Below, one piece after another: positions 35,178 to 49,570 of a DNA stretch of 64,000 nucleotides; position 1 is the stretch's first letter; every line of letters starts with the position of its first letter. The stretch comes from an uncultured Bacilli bacterium (lineage in GTDB: Bacteria > Bacillota_I > Bacilli_A > RF39 > UBA660), in NCBI GenBank assembly GCA_934182615.1, contig CAKPRO010000001.1:78197-142196 (forward strand), written 5' to 3'. The notes beneath the pieces were generated by a model. It saw nothing but the letters and a program-made list of their open reading frames with translations, was not told where the DNA came from and searched no databases. The position numbers and the translations under genes are program-made.

Positions 35178-35203
35178 AATATCTTCTCCTCTATGTTCCA
35201 CGT

Positions 35204-35968
35204 GGAACATAAAAAAATATTATCATAGTAATTATCAAATTTCAAAATATTATATTTTAAATTAAACAAAACATTTAAAAATCTCATGTTCCACGTGAAA
35301 CATTGATTGTTTTTTTATAATTAAATTTATTATTAATAATCATTAACAACAAAAATATAATAATAAAAGAATATAATTCAAAGATTACAAAAAAAATATA
35401 AATAGCTTTTTAAAATAAATAAAAATTGTTGATGAATTCATGTTCCACGTGAAACATTAAAATAATCATTTATCTAAAGCAAGTTATTATTAATTTCAAA
35501 TATACAAAAAATAATAATTAAAACATATAAAAATAAAATACGTAATAATTTAATTTGAAAATTATATAGGAAAAAGCTGTTGATAATCTATGTTCCACGT
35601 GAAACATAGAATTTACTTTCAAATTTTATTTAATATTTAATACATAAAACATTTCTAATCAACATAGTATTAAAAATTATTTCTATTAAATAATTTTTTT
35701 TATGGCTAATTTAATATATTTTTTACATATATTAATTAACTGTTGATAACCAATGTTCCACGTGGAACATGAGTTATTATTTTATAATTAAATTTGTTAT
35801 TAATAATCATTAATGAATAAAATACAATAATAAATATATATAATTCAAAAATCACATAACAAATATAAACGACTTTTAAAAATAAATAAAAAATTGTTGA
35901 TAACCAATGTTCCACGTGGAACATGAAGTTAGTTATCTAATTATTATTGCTATGTTTCACGTGAAACA
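35204..35968. repeat. Tandem array of seven parS (ParB/Spo0J centromere) sites, ~150-bp period, each unit with a DnaA-box-like TTATCAACA
   Basis: 16-mers at 35204-35219, 35287-35302, 35441-35456, 35591-35606, 35754-35769, 35908-35923, 35953-35968. Three are TGTTCCACGTGAAACA (exact B. subtilis consensus), three are the symmetric TGTTCCACGTGGAACA, one is fully palindromic TGTTTCACGTGAAACA. Spacers are paralogous AT-rich ~130-bp units ending in TGTTGATAA(CC). Confidence 0.8.
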
Positions 35969-36007
35969 TAGTATAATTTTAAATCTAATTTATCAACAGG
36001 CATAAAA

Positions 36008-42053: not shown

Positions 42054-42509
42054 TTATTTTTCAACGGTTTTTCTCATAATTCCATTTAAATATTTTTCTA
42101 TCTTTATACACTTCGTAATTTGATTATCAATCGTAGTATAAGGTACCTTAATATTCATCTCTTTACCATTATCAAAATATATTTTTGTACCATTACTTTC
42201 TTTAACATATCTAGTAATATTATTATAAGCAAGCCATATACATTTCTTAGAACTAGGAGTACATGTAGGAAAGAAAATAATCATATTATAAGAAGATACA
42301 ATAATAGGAGTCTTAATATAATAATTAAAAATATCAATAACAAATTGCCTCTGAATATTATAAGAATTACCATAAAAATTACACCCATATTTAAGTAATT
42401 TAAGACAATCAATACTCAAATAAAAATCCTTATTCTTCTCCACAACATAAGTACCATATCCATTAGAAGTAAAGCACAAAACATCATCAGTAAGAATATA
42501 ATTTCTCAT
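42054..42509 (-). CDS. comK: ComK family protein (competence transcription factor family)
   Basis: Alignable to B. subtilis ComK across the conserved core: CNFYGNSY / CRFFGSSY; KTPIIVSSYNMIIFFPT / KPPIMVDPSNQIFLFPT; FDNGKEMNIKVPY / FSNGKTMELPISY. The start is assigned to the ATG at 42509, which has a GGAGAGGGGGA RBS. Confidence 0.7.
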   Translation of the reverse strand: MRNYILTDDVLCFTSNGYGTYVVEKNKDFYLSIDCLKLLKYGCNFYGNSYNIQRQFVIDIFNYYIKTPIIVSSYNMIIFFPTCTPSSKKCIWLAYNNITRYVKESNGTKIYFDNGKEMNIKVPYTTIDNQITKCIKIEKYLNGIMRKTVEK

Positions 42510-43832: not shown

Positions 43833-43974
43833 CCTCTTTCTTTTATTATTTATTTATTATATTATTATTATTATGCTGTGGATATTGTGGAAAACTCACC
43901 TTTACCCTTGTTTTATATACTTTTACTTATCCACAATACCTGTTGATAACTTCAAACTTTTCCACTATCAACAA
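43833..43974. other. oriC part 2 (dnaA-dnaN spacer): DnaA-box cluster plus AT-rich unwinding element
   Basis: Perfect TTATCCACA at 43927-43935. Variants: ATATCCACA (43878-43886, reverse), TTTTCCACA (43887-43895, reverse), TTATCAACA (43941-43949, reverse), CTATCAACA (43965-43973). A pure A/T run at 43840-43875 lies next to the dnaN start. Confidence 0.8.
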
Positions 43975-45345
43975 CTATATTCTCTTTTTTAACTCCTCAA
44001 TTACTGTTTGTAACTGATAATTTGTCTCTAAATCTTTCTCTATTTTTTGATATGCACTTATTATTGTTGAGTGGTCTCTACCTCCAAAGTAAGTTCCCAT
44101 CTTTGGATATGACTCATTTGTCATTATTCTACACAAGTATATAGCTATTTGCCGCTGATAGTTTATATCCTTACTTCTTTTTTTACCTTTTAAATCTTCA
44201 ATATCTATCTTAAAGTACTCACAGACAATTCTCTGAATCCTATGAATATCATTTTTATATACACTACGTTCACTAATTTTATCTTTTAAAGCCTCAATAG
44301 CAATATCTAAAGTAACAACTCCATGATTCATCATTAGTGCATAAGCAAAAACCCTTGTAATTGCTCCTTCTAACTGTCTAACATCGGAATCATTAATATT
44401 AGCAATATACTCAATGACTTCAATCGGAATATCTTCCGCTGCCTCCTGATGAGATATCTTCCTTTTAATAATATCTACTCTCAGTCCAAAATCAGGTGGA
44501 GTGATATTAGCAGTAAGACCCCAATTAAACCTTGTAATAAGCCTATTTTCTAACATCTTTAAATCATCAACAGACCTGTCGGAAGCTATAATAATTTGTT
44601 TATTTGAGTCATGTAACTGATTAAAAGTATGGAAGAATTCTTCTTGTCCTTTAGTAGCGGACCCTAAAAATTGAATATCATCAATAATTAGAACATCAAT
44701 ATTCCTATACTTATTCTTAAAAGAATCAATCTTATCAAAACTATTCTTCTCATTATTTCTAACCGCCGCTATATAATCATTAACAAACTGTTCACTTGAC
44801 ACATACAAAACCTTCTTATTCGTATTTTGAATAATATAATTACCAATAGCATGCATTAAATGTGTTTTACCAAGTCCACTTTTACCATATAAAAATAAAG
44901 GATTATAAGCTTTACCAGGTTTTTCCGCCACCGCTCTAGCAGCAGTAAAAGCAAACCTATTCGAGTTACCTACAATAAAACTATCAAAAGTATATTCGCT
45001 ATTTAGATTAGCGGAAGCACTAGTTTGATGTGGAACTCCCATACTTTCATTAGAAGTACCAATAATAACCTCTTCATTATTATCACTAATTTCATTAATT
45101 TCGTTTTCTAAAATAAATTTAAAATTAAAATTTGTTCCCGTAATAGAATTAAAAGTTTCTTCAATATCATCAATATAATTTTCTTCTAAATGTTTTTTAT
45201 GTAAAGCTAAAGGAACGATAATAGTGGCAGTACCACCATCTAATTTATATAATTTAGTATCCTTAAACCAAGTATCATAAGATAAAGGAGTAATACGTTC
45301 TTTAATTTTATCAAGAAATTCATTCCATAAATTATCCGTATTCAT
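43975..45345 (-). CDS. dnaA: Chromosomal replication initiator protein DnaA
   Basis: 456 aa with an AAA+ domain (GKSGLGKTHLMHAIGN) and a C-terminal DnaA-box binding domain. Confidence 0.97.
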   Translation of the reverse strand: MNTDNLWNEFLDKIKERITPLSYDTWFKDTKLYKLDGGTATIIVPLALHKKHLEENYIDDIEETFNSITGTNFNFKFILENEINEISDNNEEVIIGTSNESMGVPHQTSASANLNSEYTFDSFIVGNSNRFAFTAARAVAEKPGKAYNPLFLYGKSGLGKTHLMHAIGNYIIQNTNKKVLYVSSEQFVNDYIAAVRNNEKNSFDKIDSFKNKYRNIDVLIIDDIQFLGSATKGQEEFFHTFNQLHDSNKQIIIASDRSVDDLKMLENRLITRFNWGLTANITPPDFGLRVDIIKRKISHQEAAEDIPIEVIEYIANINDSDVRQLEGAITRVFAYALMMNHGVVTLDIAIEALKDKISERSVYKNDIHRIQRIVCEYFKIDIEDLKGKKRSKDINYQRQIAIYLCRIMTNESYPKMGTYFGGRDHSTIISAYQKIEKDLETNYQLQTVIEELKKRI

Positions 45346-45439
45346 ATCAAAACCTCCTTAATCAAATCTGCCATTAATCTTATTATATCTCAAAAAAAAA
45401 TTTTGTCTAGATATTTTTTTTAATTAACAGGTAAAATAA

Positions 45440-45580
45440 CAAGTTATCCACAACTTATCAACAATATAATACCATATAAAATAAGACTTTAAAAGACTTT
45501 TCCACAATTTTTGTCAATTTTTGTTGTCAACAGTCAACAGCTTTACTTTTCCACAGCCCTGTGGATATTGTGGATAAATA
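45440..45580. other. oriC part 1 (upstream of dnaA): DnaA-box cluster
   Basis: TTATCCACA at 45445-45453 and 45569-45577 (reverse); TTATCAACA at 45455-45463; TTTTCCACA at 45498-45506 and 45547-45555; ATATCCACA at 45560-45568 (reverse). Confidence 0.8.
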
Positions 45581-45609
45581 AAAAAAGCCTTGATTTATAA
45601 GGCTTTATT
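45581..45609 (-). terminator. Intrinsic terminator of the HerA-like gene
   Basis: AAGCCTT-gatttat-AAGGCTT hairpin followed by a U-run on the minus strand. Confidence 0.5.
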
Positions 45610-47370
45610 CTAGTTACTTTTCCACTGTATCATCCACTTGTCAAATATTTTAGCATTTGTACTCTGTGGTTCTGGATTAGGAAGTTGCATTTTTACAATA
45701 AGTGGAATCTTCATCATCTTACCAAATGCAACACAAGTACCAGATTGAAGTGATTTTTGTTTTTCAATAACATCACTACTAATATTAGGAACCATCTTTT
45801 CAATATACTCTAAATCACTAGGATGGTTAATTTTAAATATTAAGAAATTACTACACTGTGATAAAACAGTTTCAGATAGTTCAGTAGGTCTTTGCGTAAT
45901 TAAATCAAGACATATACCAAATTTTCTACCTTCTTTAGCAATTCTTTCAAATATATTATATCCAAGAATATTAATATCATTATCCTTCTGAACATATCTA
46001 TGAGCCTCCTCTAGCATAAGATGCATTGGCATACTACCTCTAGTAGGAAGCTTTTTAGCAAAGTTAAAGATAATTCTTGCATATACTTTAACAAGAGCTT
46101 TAGCAAATCTATCATCAATATTTTCTAATACAAAATTAATAATTTGTGCTCTCTTATTATTACTCACTAATATTAAATCAGAAATAAATTCATTTACAGT
46201 AATAAACTTATCACATTCAAAATACTTTCTCATAGAACTATTAGCAATAGTATGTAATTTAACTTTTAAAGCTGTAGCTTCAGCATAAGATTTCTCATTA
46301 AGAAGAAGTCCTTCAGATATTAATGTAAAGTTAAGAGCTACTTCTAAATCGTCAATTGTAAAGAAAGTAGGTACATAATCCTCATTCCATTTAGTTTCAT
46401 TATCGACAAACTTCTTAATATATTCAGTAATAAGAATTCTTTCTACAAATTGCCCTTGACTATCAATTTCAAAACATTTTCTAAAAGTTCTAGTATAACC
46501 AACACCAGGTACTTCAACATCTAAGTTAAGTTCAGGTGTATGACAATCAGTCAAAATAGAAAATATTTGGTCTCTAATTCTAGCAGATACTTGATTAGAA
46601 TACATAACTGATACAATAGCGGATGCAATTAAATGGTTTTTATATCTATTAGATTCCTCATCATTTTTAGCAAATAAAGAAACATAAGCAAGCATCTTTT
46701 CAATAATCATAATTTGTGAATAATCAGTTACATCAAGTATATTAGCATAATCATCAACAGAAAGTAACCATAAAGGTAATTTAAGAATATTAACTCCCTT
46801 ATCAGTATCAGTGCTAAACATCTTGTAATTAAAATTATAATTATAACTAGAAATACTACTAAAAGCACTATCATATTCATCAGTATTATTAAATATAAAA
46901 ATAATACTATTAAAAGGAATATAATTAGGCATAGTAAATAAATTTTGTACTAATCTAGCAACACCATAAGTTTTACCAGAACCAGTATTACCAAAAATAG
47001 CACTATGATTGCTCCACATATCATCAATATTAATTTTAATAGGGCTATCGTTATACAAAGGAGAAAGTCCTAGCATCATTGCAGTATTGTCATTATACCC
47101 AGTAAGTTCTGCTAATTCATCAGCATTAATAATTCTAATTTTAGAATTAATACTAGGTTTTCTAATAATACCATCATAAAATTTGCTTCCATGAAATTCT
47201 CCTAAAAAACTAATTTTAGCCTCTCCGTTCATAATTTCTTCTACTTCACCTAATATTTTTTTATTATTTTCTTCAAAAACAACATTTAAGTTAAGTAAAT
47301 CATCAGTAATAACATTATCAATTTTAACAATAGCATAATTTTTACTGATAGCAATAATTTCTTTAAACAT
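45610..47370 (-). CDS. HerA/FtsK-like (DUF87) P-loop ATPase with N-terminal HAS-barrel-like region, solitary
   Basis: Walker A AIFGNTGSGKTYG, Walker B LMLEEAH, and the GICLDLITQRP arginine-finger segment typical of HerA-type ATPases. Start assigned to the ATG at 47370, which has an AAGAAGGG RBS. Confidence 0.7.
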   Translation of the reverse strand: MFKEIIAISKNYAIVKIDNVITDDLLNLNVVFEENNKKILGEVEEIMNGEAKISFLGEFHGSKFYDGIIRKPSINSKIRIINADELAELTGYNDNTAMMLGLSPLYNDSPIKINIDDMWSNHSAIFGNTGSGKTYGVARLVQNLFTMPNYIPFNSIIFIFNNTDEYDSAFSSISSYNYNFNYKMFSTDTDKGVNILKLPLWLLSVDDYANILDVTDYSQIMIIEKMLAYVSLFAKNDEESNRYKNHLIASAIVSVMYSNQVSARIRDQIFSILTDCHTPELNLDVEVPGVGYTRTFRKCFEIDSQGQFVERILITEYIKKFVDNETKWNEDYVPTFFTIDDLEVALNFTLISEGLLLNEKSYAEATALKVKLHTIANSSMRKYFECDKFITVNEFISDLILVSNNKRAQIINFVLENIDDRFAKALVKVYARIIFNFAKKLPTRGSMPMHLMLEEAHRYVQKDNDINILGYNIFERIAKEGRKFGICLDLITQRPTELSETVLSQCSNFLIFKINHPSDLEYIEKMVPNISSDVIEKQKSLQSGTCVAFGKMMKIPLIVKMQLPNPEPQSTNAKIFDKWMIQWKSN

Positions 47371-47451
47371 AATCGCCCTTCTTTCTATTCTAAGTAAATT
47401 ATACCAAATAAATATCAAAAAATAAATAACTTTTTAATAATTTTTTAGAGT

Positions 47452-47495: not shown

Positions 47496-47596
47496 AAAAA
47501 ATAATTTTAAGCCAAAATTGTCTTAAAATTAATATTTTTCTTCAATTATTTACAAAATATTAAATATATAGTATAATTTCATTAGTGGTGATTTTT

Positions 47597-49570
47597 GTGA
47601 AAAAAGAAGTAAAACAAAAAAAGAATAAAAAAAATATAAATAAAAAAACAAAATATGAAGAAATAAAAAATAAAGTTAAAGATTTTATTTTAAAATATTA
47701 TTATATATTAATTATATCATTACCTTTTATATTAATCGATATAATAACTAAAATATTGGGATACAAAATACATTTCTATGGAATATTTAGATTAGTACCA
47801 TGTTTATTTACTCTCACATATATAATCCTAATGGTTGGAATATCCCTATTCTTAGAAAAAAAGAAAGGTAAGATAGTATATACAATCTTTTTTATATTAG
47901 CCTTTGCTTTATTTATAACTAACAATATCTACTATTCAATGACTAACACATTCTTTGATTTTAGTTTAATTATGTTAGCAGGAGAAGGCTCAGACTACTT
48001 TATGGATGCTATTTTAAATTGTAATATTTGGGTATATATATCAAGTGTAATAATAATAATATCTTATATATTTGGATTAAAACAATTTAAAGAAAGAAAG
48101 AAAACAGACTTAAAAAAAATAATAAAAGTATTTTTCTTATTTTTAATTCTTCATTTAATAACTCCATTATTCTTAGGAAAACCAAATGATACCTTAACAT
48201 GGAGTACATGGAGAAATCCAAGAAATATATATATAAATTTCAATGATAACAATAAAAGTATGATGGTATCAGGAATATATGAATATAGTATTAGAAATTT
48301 CTATATAACATTTATTAAAGCTAAAAAAACAGATAATGAAGAAGATATAACTTTTCTTGAAGAAGAATATAATAAAGAAGAAGAAAATTATCAAACAAGT
48401 TATACTGGAAAATTTAAAGATAAAAATGTAATCTTTCTTCAATTAGAGGGAACCGATAACTGGTTAATAACAAAAGAAGATACACCAACTCTATATAATA
48501 TGATGAATAATTCTATTAACTTTACTAATCATTATTCATATTATAATGGCGGTGGATCAACCTTCAATTCAGAGTTTGCAGTAAATACAGGATTTATAAC
48601 ACCTCTATCATATACCCAAAACGCTTATTCATTTAATAAAAATTCATTCCCATATTCATTAGCAAAATTATTAAAAAATAAAAATTATAGTGTTAATGCC
48701 TTCCATATGAATGATGGAGAATATTATTCAAGAGCAACAAATTATAAAAATTGGGGTTATGATAACTATTATGGTTTAAAAGAACTAGGAACATATAAAG
48801 ATGATGCCTATACATTAGATAGAGAATTAATATTAAATGAAACATTTAAAGAAAAAATGTTTAGTGAAGAAAAATTTGCCGATTATATAATAACTTACTC
48901 AGGACACTTACCATTTACTACAGAAAAAGGTGTATGTAAAAAATTAGTAACTGAAGATATATTAAAAGAACAAGGATTAGAAGAACTTCCATCAGATTAT
49001 ATTCTACCTACTATGAGTGAAGAAGATTGTGCTAGAAGACAAGCTAAAGAAACAGATTATATGGTTGAACTTCTAATAAATACACTAACTGAGAAGAATT
49101 TAATAGACAATACAGTAATAGTAGTATTCACTGATCATTATCTATATACCTTATCAGATCAAACAATATTAGATAAATATAAAGATACAAGTAATAATTT
49201 AATAAATCATACTCCATTCTTTATATGGGACAATGGAAATACTAAAAAGAAAGTAACATCTGTAACATCACAATTAAATATATTACCTACTATAATAAAT
49301 CTATTAGGTTTAGAATATCATCCTAATTACTATATAGGAAAAGATGCTTTAAATGGTAGTTACAATGGCATAGTCTTCTTTAGTGATTATTCATGGTATG
49401 ATGGAAATGTATATGTTGATGGCGGAGCAGTAACCAATAACAAATACATAGACCAAGTATCATTAGAAGATAAAAATTATTATATAAACTACATTATAAG
49501 AAAAAACGATTTAACATTAAAATATAATTATTTCAAAAAGATATCTACTTCAAAAGATAAAGAAGTATAA
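47597..49570 (+). CDS. ltaS: LTA synthase family protein (LtaS-like sulfatase-fold, polytopic N-terminus)
   Basis: Five N-terminal TM helices plus an extracellular sulfatase-like domain (YNGGGSTFNSEF). Start assigned to GTG 47597, which has an AGTGGTGAT RBS. Same start sequence GTGAAAAAAGAAGTA as the 5257 gene. Confidence 0.75.
   Translation: MKKEVKQKKNKKNINKKTKYEEIKNKVKDFILKYYYILIISLPFILIDIITKILGYKIHFYGIFRLVPCLFTLTYIILMVGISLFLEKKKGKIVYTIFFILAFALFITNNIYYSMTNTFFDFSLIMLAGEGSDYFMDAILNCNIWVYISSVIIIISYIFGLKQFKERKKTDLKKIIKVFFLFLILHLITPLFLGKPNDTLTWSTWRNPRNIYINFNDNNKSMMVSGIYEYSIRNFYITFIKAKKTDNEEDITFLEEEYNKEEENYQTSYTGKFKDKNVIFLQLEGTDNWLITKEDTPTLYNMMNNSINFTNHYSYYNGGGSTFNSEFAVNTGFITPLSYTQNAYSFNKNSFPYSLAKLLKNKNYSVNAFHMNDGEYYSRATNYKNWGYDNYYGLKELGTYKDDAYTLDRELILNETFKEKMFSEEKFADYIITYSGHLPFTTEKGVCKKLVTEDILKEQGLEELPSDYILPTMSEEDCARRQAKETDYMVELLINTLTEKNLIDNTVIVVFTDHYLYTLSDQTILDKYKDTSNNLINHTPFFIWDNGNTKKKVTSVTSQLNILPTIINLLGLEYHPNYYIGKDALNGSYNGIVFFSDYSWYDGNVYVDGGAVTNNKYIDQVSLEDKNYYINYIIRKNDLTLKYNYFKKISTSKDKEV

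Follow-up and report, generated by a model that had tools for sequence, protein, structure and literature searches.

To our knowledge, bacterial HerA ATPases have so far been seen in two-gene systems, in which NurA, SIR2 or DUF4297 is the other member. In the Sir2-HerA system of S. aureus, protruding hairpins and loops of the HerA barrel touch Sir2, and HerA alone is an inactive trimer (PMC11514289). The S. aureus HerA (8yhx) carries an extended helical bundle of nine helices, and the bundle of Sulfolobus HerA consists of four (PMC11514289). DUF4297-HerA encircles and translocates double-stranded DNA (PMC11291478).

Our analysis concerns a herA gene in a 64-kb stretch of DNA from an uncultured Bacilli bacterium, which we call the window. 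The gene lies between dnaA and a divergent LtaS-type gene (Table 1). Both neighbours had been named in the original prediction, and the Pfam domains of both agree with it.

Identity of the gene product and comparison with known HerA systems

The open reading frame encodes a genuine, intact HerA-type ATPase. Pfam DUF87 matches its product above the gathering score (64.6 bits versus a cut-off of 23.2, E = 1.9e-17), and the PADLOC HerA model PDLC04102 scores 329 bits. The single-chain AlphaFold model has a pLDDT of 84 and a pTM of 0.82. When this predicted model was used as a Foldseek query against the PDB, the top matches were all HerA chains, full-length and with a probability of 1.00, and the best single-chain match was S. 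aureus HerA 8yhx (TM 0.74-0.77). The gene runs from the ATG at position 47370, which is preceded by AGAAGGG; the mechanically called frame reaches a TTG at 47418.

The sequence hallmarks that first suggested HerA (GNTGSGKT, LEEAH and GICLDLITQRP) are intact, and their key residues are invariant among 35 family members. These comprise G127, G130, G132 and K133 of Walker A; E454, E455, A456 and H457 of Walker B; and K479, E480, G481, R482, K483, G485, Q493, R494 and P495 of the KEGRKFG and ITQRP motifs, whose arginines may act as an arginine finger or sensor. P564, P566 and P568 of the C-terminal tail motif are likewise invariant. The expected HAS-barrel appears in the AlphaFold model as an all-beta N-terminal domain of good confidence, with strands at residues 2-8, 12-17, 29-34, 37-47, 50-60, 63-66 and 77-80. 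Bundle helices are modelled at residues 205-211, 218-234, 238-256, 262-275, 311-319, 339-352, 359-376, 379-384 and 392-400.

Table 1. Features of the herA locus in window coordinates
Feature	Position	Strand	Basis or remark
dnaA-dnaN spacer: four DnaA boxes (43877-43949), four TAA repeats, AT-rich tract	43833-43949	none	
dnaA, downstream neighbour of herA	43975-45345	minus	Pfam DnaA_N, Bac_DnaA, Bac_DnaA_C
dnaA promoter-like element, TAGACA-16-TATAAT	45382-45409	minus	11/12 matches; conserved in alignment
Six DnaA boxes, herA-dnaA spacer	45444-45577	none	context, outside the herA gene
herA intrinsic terminator, AAAGCCTT...AAGGCTTT then T-run	45584-45606	minus	hairpin
herA, stand-alone HerA-family ATPase gene	45610-47370	minus	586 aa; DUF87, PADLOC, AlphaFold, Foldseek
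C-terminal LPNPEPQS tail motif	45661-45684	minus	residue-by-residue alignment to anti-phage HerA 9c1m
KEGRKFG and ITQRP motifs, residues 479-495	45886-45936	minus	carry conserved arginines; GICLDLITQRP is residues 485-495 (45886-45918)
Walker B HLMLEEAH, residues 450-457	46000-46023	minus	sequence
Extended helical-bundle insertion between Walker A and B, residues ~205-400	46171-46758	minus	model
Walker A GNTGSGKT, residues 127-134	46969-46992	minus	sequence
N-terminal beta-barrel (HAS-barrel-like), residues 1-80	47131-47370	minus	AlphaFold model
herA ribosome-binding site AGAAGGG	47376-47382	minus	read directly from the sequence
Extended -10-like element TGgTATAAT upstream of herA	47398-47406	minus	read directly from the sequence
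Divergent sulfatase/LtaS-type membrane protein gene, upstream of herA	47585-49570	plus	Pfam Sulfatase

Profile searches place the protein in HerA rather than in FtsK or TraG/VirD4, as the original prediction had it. FtsK/SpoIIIE belongs to the same superfamily, and some members of the present family resemble it in lying near division genes and in bearing disordered Pro/Gln-rich tails. However, the match of the window protein to FtsK is a P-loop match of 44 residues alone (PF01580, residues 104-147; 24.9 bits versus a cut-off of 24), and the transmembrane, FtsK_alpha, FtsK_gamma and 4TM features are absent, so an FtsK paralogue is ruled out. An ATPase of conjugation or another mobile element is also ruled out (TrwB_AAD_bind 12.1 versus 20.5; plasmid_TraB 13 versus 800; no transfer genes nearby).

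The SIR2-HerA systems (Nezha or GAO_19; for example S. aureus 8yho/8yhx, E. coli 8j4u and 8sub, and the HerAs of Listeria and Enterococcus plasmids) have the beta-barrel, RecA-like core and extended helical bundle in common with the window protein. Their HerAs are 31-37% identical to it over ~90% of the length, with the same Walker, EGRK and TQRP motifs. However, SIR2 abuts or overlaps herA in those systems, whereas the window gene has no adjacent SIR2. They reside in defence islands or on plasmids rather than in core operons, and the window protein is ~30 residues shorter, with three barrel and linker segments absent. It also scores far below the cut-offs of the NCBIfam HerA_antiphage equivalogs (151.6 versus 850 and 144.4 versus 800).

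DUF4297-HerA (9c1m, 8xau, 8ziq) provides the top PDB sequence match (9c1m, 2.2e-44) and the top Foldseek matches, and it shares a C-terminal PNPEP...W tail with the window protein. Yet sequence similarity is limited to two stretches, the region holding the DNA-contact residues R284 and K287 (PMC11291478) has no sequence alignment to the window protein, and the window carries no DUF4297 nuclease gene. HerAs of this type fall outside the clade formed by the stand-alone and SIR2-type proteins, as judged by the tree position of representatives. The HerA-NurA end-resection helicases of archaea and Deinococcus-Thermus (Sulfolobus 4d2i) have the same fold (Foldseek E = 1e-22) and ATPase motifs, but the window protein scores only 98 versus 970 for NCBIfam helicase_HerA and 119 versus 800 for HerA_Thermprot, and its helical bundle is much larger than that of Sulfolobus HerA.

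Partner genes, conservation and gene contexts

The gene had been described as lacking an adjacent NurA, Sir2 or DUF4297 partner, and a wider search extends that description. No NurA, SIR2 or DUF4297 gene was found in the window or in ~10 kb further right, as read from near-identical contigs (L044-L046), and no partner gene was found in ~150 related loci. The contexts covered include locus L029, six distant subfamilies and the 47 loci of a clade that is 47-54% identical. Neither Mre11 nor Rad50 genes are neighbours of the window herA. In the 47-54% clade, a conserved downstream partner was rejected because the genes directly downstream of herA (12 loci sampled) are unrelated to each other. A hidden fused partner domain was ruled out as well; the 70-360 extra residues of some relatives are low-complexity tails that hold no enzymatic domain.

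Among close relatives, 56 of the 58 loci with at least 70% identity have dnaA as the downstream neighbour of herA. The gene is intact in ~100 loci, full-length in all except one low-quality assembly, and can be followed through species as far as 62% identity, its synteny conserved. None of the close relatives examined lacks the gene or its synteny, which argues against a recent insertion. In some species, one to four unrelated opposite-strand genes lie between herA and dnaA. Values of dN/dS are 0.007-0.17 for herA, 0.009-0.086 for dnaA, 0.034-0.167 for dnaN and 0.16-0.33 for recF. Cross-species identity of herA is comparable to that of dnaA and dnaN, and in more distant loci it exceeds that of dnaA (at locus L027, herA is 71%, dnaA 60% and dnaN 69% identical). 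In uncultured, low-GC gut Bacilli, herA shows the conservation of a housekeeping gene and is under strong purifying selection. Because the genomes are all metagenome-assembled, its core status is judged from gene contexts rather than from a presence/absence census.

The placement beside dnaA is a feature of gene order specific to this lineage. More distant members (38-54% identical) are likewise partner-less and are placed in other core operons, and members with 38-62% identity occur away from dnaA at L029, at L076 and in ftsY/ffh, sepF/divIVA and yqeH contexts. One such arrangement is ftsY, an 89-aa gene, ylxM, herA and ffh, with ftsY and ylxM upstream in 30 of 47 loci. Another, herA-sepF-divIVA, occurs close to FtsK and DnaE in three subfamilies, and distant members also show the arrangements yqeG-yqeH-herA and rnc-herA. 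All contexts examined, of which the order rpmH, herA, dnaA is one, are core operons. However, neighbourhoods vary by subfamily and do not indicate a single pathway. A divergent sulfatase gene also lies beside a 38%-identical member (L037). Many members carry long, disordered tails in which Ser, Asn, Gln and Pro are abundant and short motifs such as MGLFGENL and IMAQQAQ are conserved; a tail of this kind is absent from the window protein. Related genomes encode a bona fide FtsK as a separate gene, and the stand-alone HerA is thus no simple FtsK replacement.

Ancestry and possible roles of the stand-alone family

In a neighbour-joining tree of one alignment, all 100 of 100 bootstraps recover the stand-alone clade as monophyletic, and the same is true of the clade that unites it with the SIR2-linked HerAs. 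In the next group out (33-37% identity), herA directly adjoins a SIR2_2 gene; this group occurs in defence islands alongside PglZ and JetD, and also on Listeria and Enterococcus plasmids; the plasmid copies are ~31% identical and SIR2-linked. Phage records gave three weak partial matches to the window protein. On this tree, the stand-alone family is either the sister group of the HerA subunits of SIR2-HerA systems or nested within them.

In an alignment with SIR2-linked HerAs, three segments of ~11, ~16 and ~14 residues are missing from the barrel and linker of the stand-alone clade; without the insertions of ~11 and ~16 residues, the window protein has a minimal barrel. Judged by position in this alignment with other SIR2-linked HerAs, the segments may be equivalent to the Sir2-contacting elements of S. 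aureus HerA, its beta3-beta4 hairpin and beta6-beta7 loop. This partner-less branch is previously undescribed; an incomplete coverage of the literature on stand-alone HerA, on HerA with sepF or divIVA, and on bacterial HerA in segregation produced no description of the family.

The explanation that we prefer, and to which we give about an even chance, is that the family consists of stand-alone, vertically inherited ATPases that have lost the SIR2 gene, have become fixed in core-genome operons and act as housekeeping DNA motors. On this account, the family also lacks three segments of the Sir2-docking barrel region. As in other HerAs, the subunits presumably form a ring, which may use ATP to travel along double-stranded DNA or to remodel it; both steps are proposed because homologous HerAs have been shown to do so (PMC11291478). 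Its task might then be cell-cycle housekeeping (replication, segregation, division or repair) and not defence against phages. However, the closest characterised relatives of the stand-alone HerA all act in defence, which counts against a housekeeping role, as does the inactive trimer that S. aureus HerA forms by itself. A more sweeping version, in which a motor of the SIR2-HerA lineage or of its ancestor became a core DNA pump of the cell cycle, with no partner, throughout a whole group of gut Bacilli, is tentative and on balance doubtful.

We regard it as unlikely that the protein, now chromosomally fixed, still functions in immunity, whether as a single-protein sensor or effector or together with an effector, SIR2-like or a nuclease, whose gene lies elsewhere in the genome. 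Anti-phage HerAs are closest to it in sequence, profile and structure, and it has the C-terminal tail motif in common with 9c1m. Yet an effector gene is missing from all of the related loci searched, the contexts are core operons and not defence islands, and in both selection and synteny the gene behaves much as dnaA and dnaN do. The absent barrel segments, the scores far under the anti-phage cut-offs, the near-absence from phage records and the SIR2-linked state of the divergent plasmid copies also argue against immunity. Recruitment of the ring ATPase to the division or envelope machinery, perhaps with a non-DNA substrate, seems improbable to us. Disordered tails such as those of many members are typical of division proteins. 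Such a role would also fit the sepF-divIVA linkage of three subfamilies, which have FtsK and DnaE close by, and the divergent LtaS-type gene found beside herA in two subfamilies that are distant from each other. However, the window protein has no disordered tail, its clade lacks the sepF-divIVA linkage, and characterised HerAs all act on DNA.

A translocase or remodeller specific to the origin, working at oriC or on DnaA, would explain the adjacency to DnaA boxes and had been one proposal of the original prediction. The herA-dnaA adjacency that speaks for it is conserved and survives rearrangement of the upstream side, and the boxes have been kept along with the herA terminator. This proposal is nevertheless weakened because members with 38-62% identity sit away from dnaA and because strand asymmetry does not switch at the locus, either in the window or in 12 relatives with rpmH-rnpA. 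In addition, herA has its own terminator and lies outside the unit formed by the box cluster and dnaA, and unrelated genes intervene in some species, so we consider an origin-specific factor quite improbable. The other proposal, an orphan remnant of a defence module, holds for the ancestry alone, in that the nearest relatives are SIR2-linked, but purifying selection, the many intact loci and the age of the monophyletic clade contradict decay. Loss of the ancestral partner gene is what a decaying, pseudogene-like remnant or a recent mobile-element insertion would have in its favour. Such an origin is scarcely credible and is refuted by dN/dS values down to 0.007 and by the synteny data; the gene is full-length nearly everywhere and spans species, the TrwB/VirD4 profile is under its cut-off, and no integrase, transposase or conjugation genes were found beside herA.

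A large, old, partner-less clade that is conserved like dnaA suggests either that HerA has an unrecognised housekeeping job in some bacteria or that a defence ATPase can persist for a new purpose once its effector is lost. The clade is a natural comparison for separating the effector-docking features of HerA from its motor features. If the DNA-pump reading is true, no housekeeping HerA would have been described in bacteria before this one; the finding would agree with an old proposal of an FtsK-like role for HerA and would clearly exemplify how machinery passes between defence and housekeeping.

The herA-dnaA spacer and strand asymmetry

The herA gene forms its own transcription unit, which is terminated ahead of the DnaA-box region that precedes dnaA. 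A promoter scan made no call for the extended -10-like element because a -35 element is absent. Rfam and tRNA scans found no RNA elements in the flanks of herA. The terminator hairpin keeps its position across species and lies 7 nt from the first DnaA box.

Clusters of DnaA boxes flank dnaA on both sides, six upstream and four downstream, and are conserved across species; box positions in the herA-dnaA spacer are conserved in 13 species. The whole window contains 43 boxes with at most one mismatch versus 26.7 expected, a count reached in 0 of 100 shuffles. In the dnaA-dnaN spacer, the tandem boxes are followed by the TAA repeats and AT-rich tract, an arrangement that resembles a Firmicute unwinding module. 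However, the genome has 27% GC, so AT-rich and TAA tracts are common.

The gene had been proposed to replace rpmH-rnpA on this side of the origin. This applies only to the sub-lineage of the window, where rpmH was not found in the 64 kb, whereas relatives keep rpmH upstream and have herA between it and the DnaA-box cluster. In relatives with rpmH-rnpA, the herA-dnaA spacer contains 2-12 DnaA boxes versus 0-1 in the rpmH-herA spacer.

Coding-strand GC skew at fourfold sites is +0.63 to the left and +0.30 to the right of herA-dnaA for minus-strand genes, and -0.87 and -0.64, respectively, for plus-strand genes. GC and AT skews at these sites thus have the same polarity on both sides, and no switch at herA-dnaA was detected in the window or in the 12 relatives where rpmH-rnpA still precedes herA. 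Rightward of herA-dnaA, gene orientation and skew remain constant over at least 27 kb, of which ~10 kb beyond the window comes from the near-identical contigs. Because skew polarity is equal on both sides, composition does not support the placement of the gene next to oriC. Of the claim that its terminator abuts an oriC box cluster, the terminator and the boxes are real and conserved, but the unswitched skews do not bear out a functional oriC. The absence of a strand-asymmetry switch at the classical rpmH-dnaA locus in this lineage may matter as much as the HerA finding; if complete genomes confirm it, it would bear on origin prediction in uncultured Bacilli.

A partner-less HerA and its SIR2-linked relatives

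The 586-aa protein encoded by herA (start ATG, with AGAAGGG 5' of the start; the mechanical ORF reaches a TTG 16 codons upstream) belongs to the HerA family, as the original prediction held. It scores 64.6 bits against the Pfam DUF87/HerA model (cut-off 23.2). In Pfam profile searches the FtsK_SpoIIIE match is confined to a 44-residue P-loop, and the TrwB/VirD4 model stays under threshold. The three motifs quoted from the sequence are all found, and the top PADLOC HerA model matches residues 91-582 at 329 bits. However, NCBIfam equivalogs for anti-phage and repair HerAs reach 98-152 bits, versus cut-offs of 800-970. Thus, the protein is a HerA that lies outside every curated HerA equivalog.

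A confident AlphaFold model (pLDDT 84, pTM 0.82), derived from 35 diverse homologues, predicts an N-terminal β-barrel (residues 1-80), consistent with the proposed HAS-barrel-like N-terminus, together with a RecA-like core and a long insertion of helices. The best 50 Foldseek PDB matches listed are HerA chains throughout, including DUF4297-HerA (9c1m, 8xav, 8zit), SIR2-HerA (8yhx, 8wld, 8sub, 8j4u) and Sulfolobus HerA (4d2i). The top single-chain superposition is with S. aureus HerA 8yhx (TM 0.74-0.77).

Features of the window and of related loci
Feature	Location	Strand	Remark
herA	45610-47370	minus
herA terminator	45584-45606		downstream of herA
Six DnaA boxes	45444-45577		start 7 nt past the terminator
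Sulfatase/LtaS-type membrane protein gene	47585-49570		directly upstream of herA
ComK-family gene	42054-42509	minus	between dnaN and recF
Putative parS array	35190-35973		seven palindrome copies
Walker A	HerA residues 127-134
Walker B	HerA residues 450-457
GICLDLITQRP	HerA residues 485-495
LtaS-type gene	L037 4796-6832		directly upstream of herA
AraC-type regulator and TraG/VirD4-type coupling protein gene	L044 18375-20303		right after polC
Genes between herA and dnaA	L020 2193-4582		opposite strand
Genes between herA and dnaA	L021 9910-10419		opposite strand
Genes between herA and dnaA	L023 9943-11277		opposite strand
HerA with disordered tail	L109 6001-8346

The lack of a NurA, SIR2 or DUF4297 partner extends across the 64 kb and, in near-identical contigs, ~10 kb further right. 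The flanks are also as originally described, with dnaA downstream and a divergent sulfatase/LtaS-type gene upstream. Remaining genes form an ordinary Bacillus-type origin-proximal set. Among them are dnaN, recF, gyrB, gyrA, dnaX, recR, holB, mfd, pth, metG, lysS and clpC to one side and, to the other, fpg, polA, polC and suf genes.

In the nearest outgroup, the SIR2-linked HerAs (33-37% identical, 615-635 aa), a SIR2_2 gene abuts herA, and the pair resides within defence islands that hold, for instance, PglZ and JetD. The group is present in Veillonella, and Roseburia and Acetobacterium proteins fall within it; Listeria and Enterococcus plasmids carry a SIR2-linked HerA at ~31% identity. In a neighbour-joining tree, the stand-alone clade is monophyletic in 100/100 bootstraps, as are stand-alone and SIR2-linked HerAs together (100/100). 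Because SIR2-linked HerAs are monophyletic in only 51/100, the stand-alone members may branch from inside that group.

All stand-alone members lack ~11 and ~16 barrel residues, and ~14 just past the barrel, that SIR2-linked HerAs possess. Sir2 of the S. aureus complex is gripped by a hairpin and loops that project from the HerA barrel, and the interaction is disrupted when HerA residues 1-35 and the Sir2 N-terminus are both deleted (PMC11514289). The positional match, obtained by alignment with SIR2-linked HerAs other than that of S. aureus, suggests that the docking surface was lost.

Conservation and gene order beside dnaA

Identical HerA protein is encoded on many human-gut metagenome contigs. 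In one-genome-per-species data, herA orthologues of 62-100% identity occur at 27 loci of uncultured Bacilli, with dnaA downstream except at L029 (62% identical), where herA lies between rhomboid protease and DEAD-box helicase genes. At L032, a frameshifted long-read assembly, herA failed the gene-order length filter, yet dnaA is downstream of the match. Synteny with dnaA, a point raised by the original prediction, is kept in 56 of 58 loci at least 70% identical to the window protein, metagenome loci included. The adjacency is a stable, lineage-specific gene-order trait.

The gene matches its essential neighbours in conservation (herA 71%, dnaA 60% and dnaN 69% identical in L027). Its dN/dS of 0.007-0.17, alongside 0.009-0.086 for dnaA and 0.034-0.167 for dnaN (recF, 0.16-0.33), rules out a decaying remnant. 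The earlier idea of an orphaned defence module survives as ancestry, since the clade either descends from SIR2-linked HerAs or is their sister group, but the gene itself is intact and strongly constrained.

More distant clade members (L024-L027, L064-L073) retain the classical mnmG-mnmE-jag-yidC-rnpA-rpmH block upstream, with herA between rpmH and the DnaA-box cluster (0-1 boxes in the rpmH-herA spacer, 2-12 in the herA-dnaA spacer). Therefore herA did not replace the rpmH-rnpA side, contrary to what had been proposed. Rather, the window sub-lineage has a rearrangement breakpoint just upstream of herA, where ltaS...polA-polC now lies; rpmH was not found in the 64-kb window.

In some species (L020, L021, L023, L061), one to four opposite-strand genes of ~150-240 aa separate herA from dnaA. 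Their products lack a Pfam match and begin with alike Glu/Lys-rich sequences; they are a variable cassette inserted beside the DnaA-box region. In one strain, L044, AraC/TraG genes take the polC-adjoining slot held by polA in other strains, which indicates a mobile-element insertion into the block upstream of herA. The ComK-family gene (Pfam ComK, 1.2e-26) keeps its position in all relatives; in B. subtilis this position is that of yaaA.

Base composition and the putative origin

By motifs, the region resembles a bipartite Firmicute origin, with DnaA-box clusters on both sides of dnaA at positions conserved across 13 species. The boxes beyond herA are followed by a dnaA promoter-like element and dnaA, and the dnaA-dnaN spacer carries tandem boxes, then four TAA repeats and an AT-rich tract. 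Transcription of herA is ended separately from that of dnaA.

However, composition argues against an oriC at herA-dnaA. At fourfold-degenerate sites of the coding strand, minus-strand genes have GC and AT skews of +0.63 and -0.56 left of the locus and +0.30 and -0.56 right of it, and plus-strand genes have -0.87 and +0.50 (left) and -0.64 and +0.28 (right). Thus, one strand is G- and T-rich on both sides. To the right, gene orientation and skew are constant for at least 27 kb. Polarity is likewise unswitched in 12 relatives that keep the classical gene order, whose upstream minus-strand genes have G=128 versus C=817 at fourfold sites and whose rnpA-yidC-jag-mnmE block bears a lagging-strand signature. 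The non-switching skew at dnaA spans window 1-64000 and recurs in L024-L027, L064-L073 and L045. A functional origin abutting herA is therefore not confirmed: the terminator does adjoin the boxes, as originally noted, but the oriC label is unproven. The skews suggest that forks traverse the locus in the same direction as dnaA is transcribed and that the origin has been displaced from dnaA in this lineage.

The 1.1-kb non-coding stretch from a tadA-like gene to gyrA, adjoining the SRP RNA gene, holds seven copies of the palindrome ATGTTCCACGTGGAACAT spaced ~45-163 nt apart (mostly ~150-163), with none expected by chance. Its core matches the Firmicute parS consensus, TGTTNCACGTGAAACA, and the cluster resembles a dense array of parS (ParB-loading) sites. 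The DnaA-box variant TTATCAACA precedes three copies.

The wider family and its possible roles

Full-length relatives at 38-51% identity were recovered from 1.8 billion cluster representatives. Gene contexts were retrieved for several subfamilies, and each is partner-less and in a core operon. These are herA-sepF-divIVA in three subfamilies, close to DnaE and FtsK; yqeG-yqeH-herA, with pgsA or comEA-comEC after it; rnc-herA; a divergent LtaS-type gene beside herA; and, in a 47-54% clade, ftsY, an 89-aa membrane protein gene, ylxM, herA and ffh. In that clade, ftsY/ylxM lie upstream at 30 of 47 loci; the genes directly downstream, sampled at 12 loci, are mutually unrelated, and thus no hidden partner is present. 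We found no description of such a partner-less family in the searchable literature.

The window gene encodes a HerA without a partner, intact and under strong constraint, from a distinct clade that is fixed in core operons. By analogy with DUF4297-HerA, a ring moving on dsDNA (PMC11291478), and with the archaeal enzyme, it would form a ring that moves on dsDNA, presumably in a housekeeping, cell-cycle-linked process. Given its SIR2-linked kin, it may instead retain some role in immunity, acting with an effector encoded elsewhere, but the putative docking surface appears lost. The dnaA pairing would fit an origin-specific role, which may apply, but the skews speak against an origin here and related subfamilies occupy other operons. 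A division or envelope role may be favoured by sepF-divIVA and LtaS-type neighbours; these lineages encode a separate FtsK. The original observation was thus largely right, and its interpretation partly so.

For both the window clade and a 38%-identical subfamily (L037), the LtaS-type gene directly upstream of herA is divergent; in L021-L023 it is co-oriented. Its presence in two subfamilies may reflect coincidence or a functional link.

Many family members, excluding the window protein, have N- or C-terminal disordered tails, 40-350 residues long and enriched in Ser, Asn, Gln and Pro (P0121, P0123, P0125, P0127, P0281, P0316, P0318, P0328 and others). Their conserved short motifs (N-terminal MGLFGENL..., internal ...IMAQQAQ..., HNPALDFG repeats, C-terminal NRFxxF..TDNSQ or FI[ED]NM) are probably protein-docking peptides. 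Two members, P0128, with degenerate catalytic motifs (GNDGFGKS, LLIDNAH), and P0122, with THQP in place of TQRP, are possibly inactive paralogues.
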